DNA from: Candidatus Yanofskybacteria bacterium
GTDB taxonomy: Bacteria; Patescibacteriota; Minisyncoccia; 2-02-FULL-40-12; IGHO2-01-FULL-4-A
NCBI GenBank assembly: GCA_016181175.1
Contig: JACOZV010000004.1
Coordinates: 7,718-71,717 of the forward strand
Direction of reading: 5' to 3'
DNA length: 64,000 bases
Of the stretch, positions 1 through 9,730 are shown piece by piece (the first letter of the stretch is position 1; each line of letters begins with the position of its first letter). The position numbers and the translations under genes are program-made. Under the pieces are notes generated by a model. The model was not told the origin of the DNA. It ran no database searches and saw nothing but the letters and a program-made list of their open reading frames with translations.

Positions 1-26
1 AATTAAAAAACTAGCTCTAGCAATCC

Positions 27-62
27 CCAACCAAAAACCCCGATAACGGGGTTTTTGGTTGG
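27..62. other. perfect 15-bp stem / 6-nt loop hairpin (ccaaccaaaaacccc-gataac-ggggtttttggttgg)
   Basis: Inverted repeat read directly. It lies 3' of tRNA-Trp on the minus strand. There is no clean U-tract after the stem, so a terminator role is uncertain. Confidence 0.4.
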
Positions 63-122
63 GTCCTTCCTTCGCGGTCTAGAAGCGGGTTTTACCCGCC
101 GTAGCCCGCTTAGGTGGGCGAA
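63..122 (-). ncRNA. unassigned GC-rich structured element immediately 3' of tRNA-Trp
   Basis: On the minus strand, CCTTCGC...GCGAAGG encloses the nested hairpin GCGGG-TAAAA-CCCGC. It is GC-rich in an AT-rich genome. I recognise no family. Confidence 0.25.
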
Positions 123-195
123 GGCGGGGGCGTCCCGACTCGAACGGGAATTGACGGTTTTGGAGACCGTAGTCCTGCCATTGAACGACGCCCCC
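123..195 (-). tRNA. trnW: tRNA-Trp (anticodon CCA)
   Basis: The reverse complement folds as a cloverleaf. Acceptor GGGGGCG/CGCCCCC; anticodon stem ACGGT/ACCGT; loop CTCCAAA; T-stem TCCCG/CGGGA; discriminator G followed by CC. Confidence 0.85.
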
Positions 196-198
196 AAA

Positions 199-224
199 AT
201 AGTGCTTAAGGCACTATTTTTTTG
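199..224. terminator. hairpin atagtgc-ttaag-gcactat followed by T6-7
   Basis: Stem-loop plus T-run read directly. It sits between tRNA-Thr and tRNA-Trp. Confidence 0.45.
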
Positions 225-390
225 TTTCTTTGTGCATCACGTGCTTTCTGCAAAACTTGCAGAATTTCTTCATTTCGATTGTCCGCGTAACCAGTTTCTT
301 ATTTTTCGTAGAAAAATAATTGACTTGCTTGCAGATGCTGCACTTTAATTTTATTAGGTTATCTTGGGACATATTGTTTATTATTAACTT

Positions 391-465
391 TGGAGCCAGC
401 GGTCGGAATCGGACCGACGCTCTTTCCCTTACCATGGGAGTGCTTTACCACTAAGCTACGCTGGC
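391..465 (-). tRNA. trnT: tRNA-Thr (anticodon GGT), CCA encoded
   Basis: The reverse complement gives GCCAGCG-TA-GCTTAGTGGTAAAGC-A-CTCCC-ATGGTAA-GGGAA-...GTCGG-TCCGATT-CCGAC-CGCTGGC-T-CCA, a full cloverleaf. Confidence 0.85.
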
Positions 466-506
466 ATAATACCATGGAGTTGCTCTTCCACTGAGCTACA
501 ACGGCC
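466..506 (-). pseudogene. diverged duplicate of a tRNA-Thr(GGT) 5' half (acceptor, D-arm, anticodon stem-loop) with no 3' half
   Basis: The reverse complement is GCCGTTG-TA-GCTCAGTGGAAGAGC-A-ACTCC-ATGGTA..., parallel to the intact tRNA-Thr directly downstream. There is no matching 3' acceptor strand. Confidence 0.5.
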
Positions 507-520
507 TCACACCTACTTAG
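503..520. repeat. left arm of perfect 18-bp inverted repeat GGCCTCACACCTACTTAG
   Basis: Exact reverse complement of 781..798. It contains the TAG stop of the GIY-YIG ORF. Confidence 0.9.
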
Positions 521-776
521 CTTCAACAACACAATTCTTAATTCGCCTTTTAAGTTGCAGGTATGCGTTTCCTCTCAATTTTATACTATATTCTCTATGC
601 TTGGCATCTCCTTGCGAATAATAACTTTCATAGTATATCAGCCACCAAGGAATATTCAACTTTGTGGCTTTAACCAAACCAAAATTGTGTTGTTGGAATC
701 TTAACGTAAGATCGTGGGTATAGCCAAAGTATAATTGGCCATCTTTTTTACTTTTCAAAACATAAAAATAATACAT
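513..776 (-). CDS. GIY-YIG nuclease family protein (small stand-alone YhbQ/UPF0213-like), 87 aa
   Basis: The motif MYYFYVLKSKKDGQLYFGYTHDLTLRFQQHN matches the GIY-(x10)-YxG...R...H/N signature. The ORF extends to a TTG at 800 only because it reads through the inverted-repeat arm. The internal ATG at 776 is the likely start. Confidence 0.75.
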   Translation of the reverse strand: MYYFYVLKSKKDGQLYFGYTHDLTLRFQQHNFGLVKATKLNIPWWLIYYESYYSQGDAKHREYSIKLRGNAYLQLKRRIKNCVVEAK

Positions 777-780
777 AAAG

Positions 781-798
781 CTAAGTAGGTGTGAGGCC
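781..798. repeat. right arm of perfect 18-bp inverted repeat
   Basis: Reverse complement of 503..520. Confidence 0.9.
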
Positions 799-838
799 AA
801 CGGCCTTTTTTATCAACATTTTTTAACTTTATTTTTAT

Positions 839-854
839 TCTGTGGGGGCGGTAG
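839..854. repeat. 16-bp direct repeat TCTGTGGGGGCGGTAG, a copy of the tRNA-Tyr 3' end (T-stem 3' strand, acceptor 3' strand and discriminator)
   Basis: Identical to 1039..1054, which is the genuine 3' end of tRNA-Tyr. Confidence 0.85.
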
Positions 855-1036
855 CGTTGAAAACCAACTGCTTGGTTTTCAACGGGAATTTTAGCTTTGC
901 CTTGTGCGAATAGCACGGCAAAGCGTTATAAAAATTCCCATGCACCGTATTCGCTAAAAGCGAACTTGATGCAAATCTGCTGCTTCGCAGCAAGTCCAGA
1001 AACATAATCGCCGTAGGTAGTTATGTTTCTGGACTC
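855..1036 (-). other. hairpin-rich 180-nt segment between the two tRNA-Tyr 3'-end copies
   Basis: At least five strong hairpins: 855-884 (12-bp perfect stem), 883-941 (nested 9+8+4 bp), tcgctaaaagcga, gctgcttcgcagc, and 1003-1036 (14-bp stem). No ORF. Confidence 0.4.
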
Positions 1037-1038
1037 TA

Positions 1039-1054
1039 TCTGTGGGGGCGGTAG
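1039..1054. repeat. 16-bp direct repeat (native tRNA-Tyr 3' end)
   Basis: See 839..854. Confidence 0.85.
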
Positions 1055-1126
1055 GATTTGCACCTACGTAGGCACAAGGCCAGCAGATTTACAGTCTGCC
1101 CTCGTTGACTGCTTGAGTACACCCCC
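1042..1126 (-). tRNA. trnY: tRNA-Tyr (anticodon GTA), long variable arm
   Basis: The reverse complement gives GGGGGTG...GCAGA-CTGTAAA-TCTGC, a 15-nt variable arm, GTAGG-TGCAAAT-CCTAC, CGCCCCC and discriminator A. Confidence 0.85.
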
Positions 1127-1142
1127 TATTTTGGCCAACCGA

Positions 1143-1217
1143 TGGAGCCGACCCCGAGATTCGAACTCGGAACCTACGCTTTACAAAAGCGTTGCTCTGC
1201 CGTTGAGCTAGATCGGC
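1143..1217 (-). tRNA. trnT: tRNA-Thr (anticodon TGT), CCA encoded
   Basis: The reverse complement gives GCCGATC-TA-GCTCAACGGCAGAGC-A-ACGCT-TTTGTAA-AGCGT-AGGTT-CCGAG-TTCGAAT-CTCGG-GGTCGGC-T-CCA. Confidence 0.85.
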
Positions 1218-1822
1218 AACTTTTCCAATTTTTTTAAGAGTCGTGTGAGTTTGTTCCGAGTTGTTTCGTCCTCCGGATCAAGTTCTGCGGCTTTTTTAAA
1301 AGACTCAACTGCATCGTGCCACTCCTCCATTTTCATATATATATTGCCTAATTTTTTATAAAGCCCAGCGTCCTTTGGATTTGTTGCTATTTCAAGAATC
1401 AACTTATGTTCTTGCTCTTCTAAATCTACTCCCCTGCCACTGTCGCTACTAATCCTGACTTCTTGTTCGGCCTGGGCGGCCGCTTCGCTACTTATCACGC
1501 TCTCGTGATGCATCACTGATTTGCGAACCCTATTGATTAACCGATTGGTGACCGCGTCAAGTTTTAGCGAAAATAGTCTTAATTTCCTCAAAAATTTTTC
1601 AAATTCAGCAAGAAAATTAAGACGATATTGCCTTAAATCTACTTTCTGAATATAGGCAGTGGGCACCGGAAAAAATTCAGCCCAAAAACCAGACTGTTCC
1701 GGCACAACACTCTCAACCACTTCGGGGGTAAGTTTTTTAAGATAAACGAACTTTCGGCTTATAATCCAGCCGATAGAGACTATAGAGAAAATAAAAATAC
1801 CAAATGGAATGAAAAAAAACAT
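1208..1822 (-). CDS. hypothetical membrane-anchored protein with C-terminal TPR-like helical repeat
   Basis: ORF 1208..1843. An N-terminal TM helix (FFFIPFGIFIFSIVSIGWII) is followed by a charged helical region. The likely start is the internal Met at 1822 because the annotated start overlaps tsf. The stop codon overlaps the tRNA-Thr 5' end by about 10 nt. Confidence 0.5.
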   Translation of the reverse strand: MFFFIPFGIFIFSIVSIGWIISRKFVYLKKLTPEVVESVVPEQSGFWAEFFPVPTAYIQKVDLRQYRLNFLAEFEKFLRKLRLFSLKLDAVTNRLINRVRKSVMHHESVISSEAAAQAEQEVRISSDSGRGVDLEEQEHKLILEIATNPKDAGLYKKLGNIYMKMEEWHDAVESFKKAAELDPEDETTRNKLTRLLKKLEKLPI

Positions 1823-3288: not shown

Positions 3289-6200
3289 TTATTTATAAAA
3301 ATTCCAGAAATTTCCAAAAATATCTAACGCTTTGTCTTTTAACCCCCCCCCCCCCGTAACTTGTATTTCCAAACTGGAATCGCTGAAATTACCGGCCAGA
3401 TCAAAAACTCTGGCAGTTATTTTATGCTTTCCCGACTCAAAAAACGGGACAAGCAACTCCAAAGCAACAGGAAAAAATATTCCATCATCAATCTTAAAAT
3501 AAACAACCGGCTGAACAATTTCCTCGAAACCCACACTGAATTTAAATCTCACAGTCTCGCCGATTTTCACCGACAAAGAACTCGCCTTTATTACTGGCGG
3601 TGCCGGCGGCGTTGAATCAATCATAATTTTGAATTGGGAAACCGGCCCGAGACGGCCATCGGTGTCTTCTGCCTGGAGACGAAAATAGTATATGCTGTCT
3701 TCATCAATGGAGATGTTAAGAAAATTGTCCGAAGTTGAAACGGCTTTGCCCGGTATAAAGTCCGGGGTTTGATTCAACGCATAGTGATAAACGCCGCCTT
3801 CAAGCAACGGCCAAGCCAGCTGAATATCTTTTTTATGATACCAGCGATTGCTGTTGGGATGGCTTGGTGAAAATATGGGTATTATTTCATTAATGCTCGC
3901 GTTGGTTAATCCTTGTCGGGTAATACTGTAAAAAGCGTCACTTGCCGCCCTAAGCACATCGGTCCCCAAGCCGTCATTGGCAAGAACTTGCGTCCCTTCG
4001 GCGAATTTAAGCGAAGCCCCGCCCACAGTTAACGGCTGCACTACAAGCTCGGCTACCGTACCGGACGGTTCGGAAAATCCGGGATTAGGAACGCCGCAAA
4101 CAATTGTTACCGTTCCCGCCGCATTATCAATATCTTTTTCCAAAAAAAGTCCGGGATCGCACAAGGAATTGGCCGTCAAAATATCAACTATTTCAAACAC
4201 GCTCGGGTCATATTTTATTACCGCGCTCACGACATTGATAATTTCTCCACCGGTAAGCACCTTTATGGCAATGTTTTTTTCAACAAATTGGTTAATGATA
4301 TCCGCTTCAGGTTCAAATTTAATCGTAGAATTATAGATAGAATACGGCGCTCTTTCTAATTTTATAGAAATGCGGTCCAGTTTGTTGTAACTGATAAAAT
4401 ACATCACGGAAAATAAAGTCAGGGTTATAATTAAAATAGTTGGAATCCGATGCCTATGATGGAAAACACTCAGGAAAAAAGATAAATATATGAAAATCGC
4501 AAGAAAAGCAAGCGCCATAAAACCGGCCAAAACAATGCTATAGAAATTGTGGCTGGTCGGAAAAAGAATAATCGTTCCGCCGGGGCTTCCCTCAATTCCC
4601 GGAAATACGATATTGCTGACAATGTAATATTCCTCGCTTATTTTAAGTTCTTTGGCAAATTTAGGAACTTGTTTGGCAATTAGGTCGGAACCAACCGAGA
4701 AAAAGCTATTCAGTATAAAAATAGTATCCTTATCCTTTAAGCTTGTGCTGATTAAACCCTCCTCTGGAGTATAAAAAATAACATGCGAACCATTCTTCAA
4801 ATACTTGTCCTGAAACCGTACGGCATAAGAATTGTTAAATAAGTTTCCCAGAACAATAGCGCCGATAACTTTGTCATCTTCTAAAATAAGGGAGTTGCTT
4901 ATTGCGGCCAGGGGATTTTTGACCCCACGGACGATTTCAGTAACCGTTTCACCTTTAGCCACCCGCCTTCCTTGGATAGTGGTTTGAAAAACATTATCTC
5001 CGCGTTGATCCGGCAAATGTGAACGAACAAGCACAAATCCGTCCTTGTCAGTTACGGCAATAAAACTAAGTTCCCTTTCTTTTGCTTCAGCTTGCACGAT
5101 GGAGAGAAGCTCCAGCGTATCGCCTGCCTTCAGGGCATCGTTAAGAACTCCTGAAGAGACAATCTCCTCTCTTTGGTCAGAAATGTATTTGAGTTCCTCG
5201 GAAAAAACAGTCTTTAGTTGAATAATTTGTTTATCAGTTGAATAAGAATACCACAAGCCCAAGAGCCAGTTAGAAAATAGCATAATGATTACAAACACCA
5301 GAATGCTTAGCAATATTTCAATCATCTCTTTTTTGTGTATCCAGTCGGTTTTGCTTTTTTTATTTAATTTCTTTTTTTTACGATATTTTTTAATTAAATA
5401 ACTCTTAACTTCATGCCCAGTAGCTAGAATCTCCTTTTTTGTCGCGACAAAAATGAGCGCAATAATCAAAATAGAGGAAACCAAAAGCCATTCATTTTTA
5501 ATAAAGTTAATGAAGCCGCCGAATATCTTTGTCAAAAAGTCAAAAATTAGTTCGGTAAAAGACCCGGATTTTACCCTAAATGATACTCGGTTAGAATCAA
5601 TAGAAATGGCACTCCTGTCATCAACCGCCTGCGCCGTCACCTCGTGGCGACCTCCTCGTTCCGGCTTAAACTCAACCTGCCAATATCCATTGGCATCGGC
5701 GTGCGTTTCCAGTATGTATTCCGGGTTGACCCTGATGGCAACCCGAACTTTTTGGTTGGGCTTGGCTTTTCCATTTATAGTAATGGTTTCGCCTATTTTA
5801 ACTTGCGGCTTTTCTATTTGATTTAAAATCACCGGCTCTATTGATTGAATCTCCATTTGATAGTCAGATTCTGAATAATTCCCTGCTTTATCAAAAGCTC
5901 TTATGATAATCTTGCGCACCCCTGGCAATTGCAAAGGCATTTTATATAATCCGGCCAACCCCGGTTCTATTTTTAACCAGTCACTCTCACCGATTTTCAT
6001 TTCATATCTATCAATACCAGATGTACCGTCTGAAGTATCAAAAGCGAGTCTGGGTTGCGGGTTGGTTAAGTCCGCCACATCCAATCTGGTTATTTTAAAA
6101 TCTGCGGGTTTTTGGGTATCAACGTTAAACTTAAACGAAGTTACGGGACCTAATCCCGCTGGTGTTTTCGCACGGGCGTTAAAATAAAATTCGCCCTCTC

Positions 6201-6984: not shown

Positions 6985-7003
6985 AGTTAAAATTGATAGC
7001 CTA

Positions 7004-7903
7004 CTATCTGAATCTTTTGTTATTTTTTATTAATTTTTTTGCTCTTCGTATTAACCGTGTTAAAAATGAAAAAAATAAAATAACCAAAAAAGTCGGCGTG
7101 CCAATTGCCAAATATGCAAATCCGTGGGGGACGAATTTCTCAATTCTTGCAAGCCCTACTTTATCCACGGCTTTTATCTCTATTATACTAAACGGATACA
7201 AATGCCGCAAAACATAAGGACTGTCTGCTTCACGCCACTGACCAAACAAACCAAGAGTTTTTTCCTTAACTTCATAGTGGCTAATGCCACTTCCCTTGTC
7301 TTGGGCTGAAAAAACGGCAACTCTGGCGCCATCAAATAAATTCTCGTTTTTGGTTATGAGTATCTCAAACTTTTCGGGCGCATAAAAATCCACAATTCGT
7401 GTTTTGATTATCTCTTGGTCGCCAGCTTCAAGAATATTAACAGCCGCTATCCCCGTGGTAACCGGCGCCTCCTGGCCTCCATCTTGGTGCAAATAAACCT
7501 TAAAATCTTCGAAAAATATCCGAGCTTCTCCTGTTTTCTTGGCCAAAAATGATAAATCAATAATTTTATCTTCCTTATCAGTGGTTGGTCCCTCTCCTCC
7601 GGGTATAATACCTGAAAATTTAATTGTATCTTTTCCGATTAAGGCTGGCCTATCAACCCATAAATTTATCAGCGAATTGGCATCAGAAAAATCTTTATAT
7701 TCAAGCAGGTTTGGGTCAAATTTGATTTTACTTTCTATGGCATTTATAAATTCTTCCGGATTTATCAGAACCTTAACTGAAAAAATCTGACCGGCCTCAA
7801 TTTCGCCCGGGATAGAAAAATATAATTTGGCCGCCGAGGCAAAATTAGAGAATAGTAAGTAGAAAGTAGAAAGTAGTAAAAAAATTAAATATTTTTTAAA
7901 CAT
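7004..7903 (-). CDS. secreted/anchored protein with cohesin-like N-terminal domain and C-terminal TM anchor
   Basis: Signal peptide, then AAKLYFSIPGEIEAGQIFSVKVLINPEE...IKFDPNLLEY (same module as in 3289..6984), and a C-terminal hydrophobic segment followed by basic residues. Confidence 0.7.
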   Translation of the reverse strand: MFKKYLIFLLLSTFYLLFSNFASAAKLYFSIPGEIEAGQIFSVKVLINPEEFINAIESKIKFDPNLLEYKDFSDANSLINLWVDRPALIGKDTIKFSGIIPGGEGPTTDKEDKIIDLSFLAKKTGEARIFFEDFKVYLHQDGGQEAPVTTGIAAVNILEAGDQEIIKTRIVDFYAPEKFEILITKNENLFDGARVAVFSAQDKGSGISHYEVKEKTLGLFGQWREADSPYVLRHLYPFSIIEIKAVDKVGLARIEKFVPHGFAYLAIGTPTFLVILFFSFLTRLIRRAKKLIKNNKRFR

Positions 7904-7930
7904 TTTTGTTCAGAAGTAATCTATCTGACT

Positions 7931-9730
7931 CTATCCGGACCAATGGAATGCTAATATGCTAAAGTCGGCTAAGTTCAAAAGTCCGTCACAGTTCAAGTCA
8001 ACATTAGAACCTTCGGGAACTGTTCTTTTCCACCAGTAAGCCATAATAGAAAAGTCTATTAGATTAATTTTTCCGTCACTATTAATATCGGCGTCGCGGG
8101 AACATTCTTTTTGCGGAACCGCAACGCCGATTCCAAAAGTCACCAGCTGGGAAAAAATGGATTCATCACCGGTTTTTAAAACTTCGGTTTTGGTTTTAAC
8201 AGTATGAATACCCTTCTCCAGACCGATAGTAGAAAAAACCTGTGAATAATCTCCGTTCAACAACGATTTGGTAATATAATCTTTTGGTTCTGATACGACG
8301 CTCACTCTGACTTGGGAATCGGGCACGGAAGACCCGCTAACGGTCAATTGCTCTCCTAGGTTAACGGAGGTTTTATTTAAACTGATTGTCGGCGGCAAAA
8401 CAATATTGGACACTTTTGCGATAGAACCGCTTGTCAAAATTTCCCGCTTAGTAAAGGTTACCGAACGCCGGCCGGTTTTGTCTTGCGCCCAAAATCCAAA
8501 GTTATAACCACCCGCTGATAACCCCGATAAAATAAAGCTGAATTTGCCGCTACTGTCAGCCGTAGTCGCACCGGCATTAGATCCGTCTTTCAAAAAATTA
8601 ATAACTGCCGACGGGTAAGCAAAACCCCCAAACTCCACAGCCGCTGTTGCAAGTATAGACCCGCCGCCGCCACCTCCGCCTCCGCCACTCGAAGCCGGTG
8701 TGGGCGTCGGTGTAGCCGCCGTGGTTCCAAAAATGGCAAATGAACTAAAATTAGCAGTAGAAAAAGTAATTGTTTTATTGGTTGTATTAATTGTCGCTCC
8801 GCTAACCAGTTGCCATGAGGAGTCGCTGGATCCCCAACGATAAGGCGCAAGGGAGCTTTCTGTAATACCGCTTACATCCGAACTGGAATAACTAAGAGTA
8901 ATGGTAGCCGGAATAGAAATGGCGCTTATCTGGTCTCCGGTACTTGGATGAAAAATGTTAAAGTCGTATGTTTTGCCGACAAAGTTTTTTTGGGAAGGCG
9001 CCGGTTTGCTGGAAGCAAAATAACTATTTGGAAAAGAATTTGCGACGAGTTGAACCGTCTGTGTGTAGAAGTTCTGAGGAAAATCAAGAACAGCGGTCGT
9101 ACCGCCGCTGTTGGTTAAAGTAAGAGCATTTCTGGTGGCCACATTAAAAGTAGAGGCATTGGCCGCTTCTGCTATGCTACTTGAGACGGGAGTAACACTT
9201 TTTTCATTAGAGGTAGCGACAACATTGCCCACCCCGTCTTTTGTTTCAATTTTAAAAGTATAATCGGAGTTATTAGTTAAACTTGATTTTTGATAGAAAA
9301 TAACATTCCCTACGTTTTGGCACGAATAAGTTCCGCCTGAAGTTAATTTTGTGCAAACATTATATCCACCAACAGAAAAACCCTGGGATGCCGAAGCCGG
9401 TGTCCAAGAAAGAAAAGCTTCGGCATTCCCCTTTAAAGCAGTATGCAATATTGGAGCTGTTACTTTCGGAAAATACAAAAACCCACTTCTCAAACCAAAG
9501 TTAGTAATTGAAGAACTGCCGATGGCTAAGTCGCCGACCGTTGCTCTCAAAATAAAACTTGACGAGCTTGACGAAGCTGTACCGCCGAAAATCGAATGTT
9601 GTGAGTCCAAAATCCTAAAATTATCGGAAGATAAACTCGCGCCAATAGAAATTTCGGCCGAGACAAAATCAGGGATTAGAAATACCAAAAACAATATTAT
9701 TAACACCAATAAACCCTTGTAATGGCTCAC
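7931..9730 (-). CDS. secreted repeat protein with C-terminal dockerin-like module
   Basis: Signal peptide. A Ser/Gly-rich repeat region. The C-terminus DINSDGKINLIDFSIMAYWW...DLNCDGLLNLADFSILAFHW is a duplicated dockerin-type Ca-binding repeat. Confidence 0.7.
   Translation of the reverse strand: MSHYKGLLVLIILFLVFLIPDFVSAEISIGASLSSDNFRILDSQHSIFGGTASSSSSSFILRATVGDLAIGSSSITNFGLRSGFLYFPKVTAPILHTALKGNAEAFLSWTPASASQGFSVGGYNVCTKLTSGGTYSCQNVGNVIFYQKSSLTNNSDYTFKIETKDGVGNVVATSNEKSVTPVSSSIAEAANASTFNVATRNALTLTNSGGTTAVLDFPQNFYTQTVQLVANSFPNSYFASSKPAPSQKNFVGKTYDFNIFHPSTGDQISAISIPATITLSYSSSDVSGITESSLAPYRWGSSDSSWQLVSGATINTTNKTITFSTANFSSFAIFGTTAATPTPTPASSGGGGGGGGGSILATAAVEFGGFAYPSAVINFLKDGSNAGATTADSSGKFSFILSGLSAGGYNFGFWAQDKTGRRSVTFTKREILTSGSIAKVSNIVLPPTISLNKTSVNLGEQLTVSGSSVPDSQVRVSVVSEPKDYITKSLLNGDYSQVFSTIGLEKGIHTVKTKTEVLKTGDESIFSQLVTFGIGVAVPQKECSRDADINSDGKINLIDFSIMAYWWKRTVPEGSNVDLNCDGLLNLADFSILAFHWSG

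Follow-up and report, generated by a model that had tools for sequence, protein, structure and literature searches.

A hairpin-bracketed mini GIY-YIG nuclease gene cassette at a tRNA-Thr gene belongs to a large family at RNA genes of CPR bacteria

The cassette and the tRNA cluster in which it lies

We analysed a 64,000-nt stretch of a Candidatus Yanofskybacteria bacterium contig (JACOZV010000004.1, positions 7,718 to 71,717; assembly GCA_016181175.1), which is referred to as the window throughout. All genes in its first 3 kb lie on the minus strand, and in transcription order they are rpsB, tsf and a gene for a TPR protein, tRNA-Thr(UGU) at 1217-1143, tRNA-Tyr at 1126-1042, a 186-nt spacer, a GIY-YIG ORF at 776-513, a tRNA 5' fragment at 505-471, an intact tRNA-Thr(GGU) at 465-391, and rpmG and tRNA-Trp at 195-123. 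The features of the locus, all on the minus strand, are as follows.

806..837 (-): AT-rich leader that is shared, together with the cassette and the tRNA remnant, with the related loci L081/L154.
798..805 (-): upstream copy of an 8-nt direct repeat, GGCCGTTG, which is nt -1 to 7 of the tRNA-Thr acceptor 5' strand; its last base is shared with the 5' arm.
778..798 (-): 5' arm of the inverted repeat (IR), GGCCTCACACCTACTTAGCTT, which ends 1 nt before the ATG.
513..776 (-): 87-aa GIY-YIG nuclease gene of the Slx1/UPF0213 type, with Tyr5, Tyr16, Arg26, His30 and Glu62 conserved as catalytic residues.
683..695 (-): partner of an inner 13-bp inverted repeat (codons for QQHN).
524..536 (-): inner 13-bp inverted repeat, which extends the predicted panhandle.
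503..523 (-): 3' arm of the IR, containing the last three sense codons and the TAG stop codon (513-515); its last 3 nt are nt 1-3 of the tRNA remnant.
499..506 (-): downstream copy of the direct repeat GGCCGTTG.
471..505 (-): truncated tRNA-Thr(GGU) of 35 nt (nt 1-36 in standard numbering), ending right after the anticodon GGT at the group I intron site 36/37; a remnant of the ancestral gene on which the cassette sits.
466..470 (-): 5-nt junction ATTAT between the remnant and the intact tRNA.
391..465 (-): intact, intron-less tRNA-Thr(GGU) of a different allele (acceptor GCCAGCG).

The original prediction had described a GIY-YIG gene bracketed by perfect 18-bp inverted repeats, with the stop codon inside one arm and a partial copy of tRNA-Thr directly after it, and this observation is confirmed. 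The 18 bp are the outer part of a repeat of 21 nt, whose arms are 100% complementary and 254 nt apart. As the uniqueness of the repeat had been named beforehand as a check, we searched for it elsewhere and found it to be unique in the 64-kb window, where 0.02 matches are expected by chance with up to 3 mismatches allowed. Searches for further copies of the ORF or the half tRNA in the window also returned none, and thus only one cassette lies in it. The 8-nt direct repeat GGCCGTTG flanking the cassette (plus strand 798-805 and 499-506) is an addition to the original description. An Rfam scan of window positions 1-1400 at E-values up to 10 returned only the four tRNAs and chance hits, with nothing for the IR or the spacer and no group I intron.

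The protein matches the Pfam GIY-YIG family (PF01541) at 44.1 bits against a cut-off of 22.6 (E=2.7e-11, residues 1-71), while NCBIfam and PHROGs gave no family for it, and an exact look-up showed that this protein is not on record. Y16, G18, R26, H30 and E62 are invariant and Y5 is nearly invariant in 20 homologs, although the assignment of catalytic roles to these residues rests on the alignment to UPF0213 and on established knowledge of the fold. A profile search of PDB sequences returned the UPF0213 proteins BH0048 (1zg2, E=1.4e-11) and EF2693 (1ywl, E=2.1e-8), followed by Slx1 (3.4e-4) and, weakly, I-TevI (5.4e-3). The AF2 model (pLDDT 93.3) has the order E-E-H-H-E-H-H, with the three-stranded sheet flanked by helices that characterizes the fold, and a Foldseek search with it gave the same order of relatives, matching UPF0213 and Slx1 chains with 25-34% identity but I-TevI only at E=0.7. 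Therefore, the closest profile and fold relatives are UPF0213 and Slx1 rather than UvrC or I-TevI. The protein consists of the catalytic domain plus one C-terminal helix, and there is no DNA-binding domain beyond this basic helix.

A family of IR-bracketed cassettes at RNA genes

A word-indexed search returned 107 close homologs of the protein, almost all of 84-90 aa and from CPR/Patescibacteria, and an exhaustive search gave 3,994 cluster representatives at E<=1e-3. We fetched 80 genomic loci with a profile (related loci are designated by L and a number), and found that a perfect IR of at least 12 nt brackets the ORF in the same position in 53 of 79 loci, against 1 of 275 shifted control windows in related loci, in which the longest bracketing IR was 12 nt. 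However, about a quarter of the homologous loci have no IR. The arms have a median length of 20 nt, the 5' arm ends 0-25 nt before the start codon, and the stop codon usually lies in the 3' arm. The arm tips share a CAC core, whereas the inner arm sequence varies but stays complementary. When the arms of 50 copies were anchored on the invariant CAC/GTG, the next nine positions each showed 3-4 different Watson-Crick pair types, and 96.7% of 600 positions were paired, against 53% with shuffled partners, with 41 distinct 12-mers among the 50 copies. This indicates that complementarity is either selected or regenerated at each move. We also compared G.U with A.C mismatches in order to decide between an RNA and a DNA role for the IR, and found no RNA-strand bias (15 G.U, 12 A.C and 19 other among 1,194 pairs). 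This test is not decisive, but the scarcity of G.U pairs (1.3%) argues that complementarity is set at the DNA level or that the copies are young, rather than that it is maintained by RNA selection.

A tRNA starts within 60 nt downstream of the cassette in 18 of 80 loci, where about 1 is expected from tRNA density, and 21 of 23 adjacent tRNAs are on the same strand. Of 40 loci without an adjacent tRNA, six lie inside structural RNA genes, all in sense orientation, namely, rnpB (L018, L030 and L078), 16S (L043) and 23S (L044 and L063), while many copies lie between protein genes. In L018 the 291-nt insert sits in the P9 hairpin loop of RNase P RNA, where the CCCC/GGGG arm tips serve as the P9 stem. 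In contrast to these relatives, the window copy lies at the 5' edge of a tRNA, not inside an RNA. Flanking direct repeats of at least 7 nt occur in 11 of 60 loci, against 0.07% of controls, and nearly all of them are at tRNA ends, where 6-11 nt are duplicated, whereas the repeats are only 0-5 nt at non-tRNA sites, so that no uniform target duplication exists. Each repeat equals one strand of the acceptor stem, either nt 1-7 to 1-10 in the 5' cases (L016 GGGGCGGTTA, L085 GGCCTCA, L091 GGCCCTA and L090 GGGCGCCA), or the 3' acceptor strand in the case of tRNA-His, whose 3' end is occupied in both ORF orientations (L059 against L013/L054). The IR tip extends into one copy of the repeat, giving the pattern X-x'-cassette-X.

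Presence and absence of the cassette and the origin of the half tRNA

Since an alignment with relatives might reveal an empty site, we scanned metagenomes for the sequence of the tRNA fragment, which returned 65 loci carrying this tRNA-Thr(GGU) 5' half. Of these, only L154 has the GIY-YIG gene and only L125 has an arm remnant, and the other 63 lack any trace of the cassette. L133/L112 share the gene order of the window (rpsB, tsf, membrane/TPR protein, Thr-UGU, Tyr, Thr-GGU, Trp) and have an intact, cassette-free tRNA-Thr beginning GCCGTTG; the empty site would read AAAAAAGGCCGTTGTAGCTCAG. L125 has a 21-bp hairpin with a 29-nt loop and no ORF at exactly the same position, flanked by the same repeat (GCCGTT), and its arms differ from those of the window at three positions, all of which are compensated. 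L081-L084 and L154 (protein 90% identical) carry the same cassette with the same repeat. L082 continues from the 3' arm through GTT straight into the 5' arm, which is a tandem or circular junction (such a junction would read GGTGTGAGGCC-GTT-GGCCTCACACC), and L084 is preceded by a diverged second copy. Furthermore, proteins 74-76% identical sit 5' of tRNA-Glu(CUC), each with a repeat matching its own tRNA, and next to T4SS pilin genes, and ORF-less hairpins carrying the arm motif occur in at least seven other places.

The half tRNA is not a product of the insertion. In L081/L154, the nearest cassette-bearing relatives, the sequence after the cassette reads GCCGTTGTAGCTCAGTGGTAGAGCAACTCCATGGT, followed by an insert of about 300 nt and then AAGGAGTAGGTCGTCGGTTCAATCCCGACCAACGGCTCCA. 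The insert aligns end to end with the group I intron model (RF00028) and shows the conserved core, although its score of 22.6 bits (E=0.007, L081) is below the gathering score of 50. A 2026 survey reports that exactly these divergent 36/37 tRNA-Thr(GGU) introns of Patescibacteria are missed by RF00028 (PMC13011429). About 36 of the 65 metagenome loci have an intron at this point, and about 27 are intron-less. The window fragment is 34/35 identical to the tRNA-Thr(GGU) of relatives, but only 26/35 identical to the adjacent intact gene, which rules out that it is a diverged copy of its neighbour, and the intact gene is 56/75 identical to the relatives' spliced tRNA. Homology to L154 runs over window positions 471-837 at 86% and stops right after GGT. 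The fragment is therefore the 5' exon equivalent of the ancestral tRNA on which the cassette sits, and everything 3' of the intron site has been replaced by ATTAT plus a different tRNA-Thr(GGU) allele. Such a replacement might have arisen by a deletion between the intron start and a second gene copy, or by aberrant repair when a cassette-bearing, intron-bearing donor met an intron-less recipient, neither of which our data single out. No close match to the intact GCCAGCG-type tRNA was found among the loci that we collected. A similar cassette plus a truncated tRNA-Ala 5' fragment occurs in L007.

Accordingly, the interpretation given in the original prediction is only partly supported. Its view of a mobile-type insertion at a tRNA gene is supported. 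However, its suggestion that the tRNA 5' half is a partial target duplication is not, since the real duplication is 8 nt; nor is a homing-type insertion of the I-TevI kind, since the protein is closest to UPF0213/Slx1 and the family sits in many unrelated sequences, making classical sequence-specific homing unlikely. The proposal that the cassette occupies the slot of tRNA-Gly in a thrU-tyrU-glyT-thrT arrangement fails as well, since relatives have Thr(UGU)-Tyr-Thr(GGU)-Trp with no tRNA-Gly in between.

Possible modes of mobility and comparison with known systems

We consider it more likely than not that window positions 499-805 (minus strand) are one copy of a widespread family of roughly 0.3-kb cassettes, each an 84-90-aa Slx1/UPF0213-type GIY-YIG nuclease gene enclosed by a near-perfect IR of about 20 bp, whose 3' arm overlaps the end of the ORF. 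Our sequence comparisons establish this architecture, the family-wide IR with its covariation, the preference for tRNA ends and for loops of rnpB, 16S and 23S genes, the orientation bias, the presence or absence of the cassette at orthologous sites, the ORF-less and tandem/circle forms, the duplication of one acceptor strand at tRNA sites and the nature of the half tRNA, whereas expression, RNA processing, nuclease activity and the way in which the cassette moves are inferred from sequence alone. No plausible promoter was found upstream of the ORF, and the cassette would be co-transcribed with the tRNA operon; the sense-orientation bias fits such a dependence on host transcription. A small GGCC-GTT-GGCC hairpin considered as a terminator scored only on the antisense strand. 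In the transcript, the arms of about 21 bp plus the inner 13-bp repeat would close a panhandle helix (predicted MFE -110.6 kcal/mol, z-score -6.1), so that the host RNA could still fold or be cut free, as with rRNA intervening sequences. Slx1 cuts branched and hairpin DNA, and by inference the small nuclease may be structure-specific as well, breaking DNA at hairpin- or cloverleaf-forming RNA-gene sequences, with the cassette entering such breaks. The X-x'-cassette-X pattern, the two orientations at tRNA-His and the tandem junctions all fit a scheme in which an arm2-loop-arm1 hairpin junction is cut and joined to a target identical to hairpin tip plus loop. The repeat boundaries (tRNA nt 0/1 and 7-10, or 65/66 and the 3' end) coincide with helix junctions of a cloverleaf, where a junction-specific nuclease would cut. 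However, GIY-YIG enzymes are hydrolytic and are not known to join DNA. In this view, the duplicated acceptor strand could afterwards serve as a short left homology arm for homing-type copying between tRNA genes.

A more far-reaching version of this scheme is possible, though we regard it as unlikely on present evidence. In this version, the cassette is an autonomous mobile element of only about 300 bp, whose 87-aa Slx1-like nuclease recognises DNA secondary structure, both the element's own hairpin junction and the cruciform or cloverleaf formed by RNA genes, and cuts both, so that the element integrates at acceptor-stem boundaries and helix loops. This would be a transposition mode using neither a known transposase nor a sequence-specific homing enzyme, and the element would be one of the smallest self-mobilising elements in bacteria.

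Other explanations appear less likely. A classical free-standing homing endonuclease gene, whose sequence-specific enzyme would cut the cassette-less tRNA-Thr gene so that the cassette is copied in by double-strand-break repair, would account for the presence and absence at the same tRNA site and the strong tRNA adjacency, and GIY-YIG is a known homing endonuclease fold. Nevertheless, we consider it improbable, since the protein lacks a DNA-binding domain, family members sit at tRNA-Val, Ala, Glu, Tyr and Ser, the tRNA-His 3' end, rnpB P9, 16S, 23S and protein-gene spacers rather than at a single conserved target, and homing does not create flanking duplications or inverted repeats. A minimal IS/MITE-like DNA transposon, with the arms as terminal inverted repeats bound by the GIY-YIG protein acting as transposase and the 8-nt repeat as a target-site duplication, is the least doubtful of these alternatives, given the terminal IR with its CAC-containing tip, the flanking duplications at tRNA sites, the ORF-less derivatives, the two orientations at tRNA-His and the circle- or tandem-like junction.

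On the other hand, the duplication length is not fixed, the inner arm sequence is not conserved between copies, the IR extends into the target copy on one side, the only ORF is not a transposase of the DDE, HUH or Ser/Tyr recombinase classes, and no GIY-YIG enzyme is known to catalyse strand transfer. Least likely is a purely RNA-level device, in which the IR is an RNase III-type processing stem and the gene a vertically inherited passenger with a host function in RNA metabolism. The sense orientation in or next to RNA genes in 27 of 29 cases, the arm length of about 20 bp, the stable predicted panhandle and the GIY-YIG ORFs reported in non-intron rRNA insertions of CPR (PMC11270868) speak for it, but the scarcity of G.U pairs without sense-strand bias, the presence or absence between close relatives, the tandem copies and the many copies between protein genes speak against it.

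The closest described systems are the non-intron insertions in CPR rRNA genes that encode GIY-YIG proteins (Tsurumaki et al. 2024, PMC11270868; citing Brown et al. 2015). The same protein family occurs there in the same bacterial group, and L043 (16S) and L044/L063 (23S) are such insertions, which are not group I or II introns, but the text of that paper does not mention the bracketing IR, a text search for GIY-YIG found no link to tRNA ends, rnpB or ORF-less derivatives, and the window copy is at a tRNA, not in rRNA. Free-standing and intron-encoded GIY-YIG homing endonucleases (I-TevI, T4 Seg proteins) share the catalytic domain, the insertion of a selfish gene next to or within conserved genes and the presence/absence polymorphism, but they carry a C-terminal DNA-binding domain, recognise long specific sites and have no bracketing IR or target duplication. 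Slx1 and bacterial UPF0213, similarly minimal in domain size, are the closest sequence and fold relatives, but Slx1 has a RING domain and an Slx4 partner and acts in repair, and UPF0213 genes are not known as IR-bracketed cassettes; prokaryotic Slx1-like stand-alone GIY-YIG proteins were catalogued in 2006 (PMC1564403). The 23S rRNA intervening sequences removed by RNase III, some with an ORF (23S_rRNA_IVP), enclose an insert by a long stem within a helix loop of a structural RNA gene in sense orientation, as do the related cassettes inside rnpB, 16S and 23S genes, but they are known mainly in 23S helices 25 and 45 and carry no nuclease gene. REPtrons (RAYT genes flanked by inverted REP hairpins) and IS200/IS605 hairpin-end elements also have a small nuclease or transposase gene bracketed by inverted hairpin-forming repeats, with ORF-less copies elsewhere and DNA secondary structure probably being read, but they use HUH Y1 enzymes of a different fold and have no overlap of an arm with the ORF end, and REPs are far more numerous per genome. 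As to the group I introns at position 36/37 of tRNA-Thr(GGU) in Patescibacteria (PMC13011429), the point of insertion is exactly that at which the half tRNA of the window ends, but the window itself has no intron, and the GIY-YIG gene lies outside the intron.

Selfish endonuclease genes and intervening sequences are thus known, but we found no description of the bracketing IR, the tRNA-end duplications, the rnpB insertions or the ORF-less derivatives in a literature search that was partial, so that prior description cannot be excluded. The window copy is a typical member of this family, not a categorically new system. The family links observations that had been separate, namely, GIY-YIG ORFs in non-intron rRNA insertions of CPR bacteria, small "GIY-YIG family" genes next to tRNAs, and odd tRNA fragments, all of which fit one cassette architecture that can now be annotated by its CAC-tipped IR. 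In practice, cassette-associated tRNA remnants and intron-split tRNAs confuse tRNA annotation in reduced genomes, and here the duplicated half records the replacement of an intron-bearing tRNA-Thr by another allele. A 0.3-kb element with a single 87-aa Slx1-like nuclease would be an unusually simple system, which could be used to study how a structure-specific nuclease drives mobility and how insertions in essential RNA genes are made harmless.

Possible repeated insertions between tRNA-Tyr and tRNA-Thr

The 186-nt spacer after tRNA-Tyr is predicted to fold into five hairpins, and is flanked by a 16-nt direct repeat of the tRNA-Tyr 3' end. The features of this region are as follows.
855-1038, minus strand: spacer
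839-854 and 1039-1054: copies of the 16-nt direct repeat
915-919: minus-strand GCCGT

We found the spacer to be conserved in the metagenome loci L151 (85%) and L137 (69%), and partly in L133/L112, with compensatory changes in the first hairpin, while L142/L126 have a shorter insert with the same repeat. The spacer is a candidate non-coding element or structured RNA inserted at the tRNA-Tyr 3' end; Rfam finds nothing here. Furthermore, in L133 the spacer runs ...ACGCTTT directly into GCCGTTGTAGC, the start of tRNA-Thr, whereas the window has ...ACGCTTTGCCGTG... at the same point (915-919), and then about 113 nt more before the cassette. This makes a third copy of the tRNA-Thr 5' end, suggesting repeated insertions at this site. 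In L151 (minus strand, about 6994-8133), the closest syntenic relative, a 379-aa membrane-protein ORF lies between the spacer and tRNA-Thr(GGU), at the place where the window has the cassette.

Group I introns in tRNA genes of the related loci

Among the 65 metagenome loci (L092-L156), tRNA-Thr(GGU) is interrupted by group I introns at position 36/37 in about 36, and L125 (minus strand, about 3490-3770) also has a group I-like intron in the anticodon loop of tRNA-Tyr. Most of these genes are missed by ARAGORN. In L154 (664-793), and in the same region of L081, both of which carry the cassette on such an intron-split tRNA-Thr, a 19-bp hairpin with the cassette-like arm motif CCC[GT]CACCC sits in a peripheral loop of the tRNA-Thr group I intron, and it may be a decayed ORF-less cassette inside the intron.

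Variation in cassette structure and tRNA adjacency

A perfect 13-bp inverted repeat lies inside the ORF, where the codons for NCVVE near the C-terminus are the reverse complement of the codons for QQHN around the catalytic His.
524-536: one arm of the inner inverted repeat
683-695: its partner

This repeat is conserved in L081, and in shortened form in more distant homologs, which may explain the unusually conserved C-terminal tail. Two proteins, P0108 and P0110, of 205-214 aa, contain two GIY-YIG stretches, and are probably fused tandem cassette copies. In the locus L007 (2465-3357), a cassette is followed by a truncated tRNA-Ala 5' fragment of about 25 nt, then a second, different GIY-YIG gene, and then an intact tRNA-Ala, providing a second case of a cassette next to a tRNA 5' remnant. 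Homologs with no detectable bracketing IR in eight loci (L029, L042, L048, L051, L064, L068, L069 and L075) still lie 6-49 nt upstream of a same-strand tRNA; therefore, tRNA adjacency does not depend on the IR.
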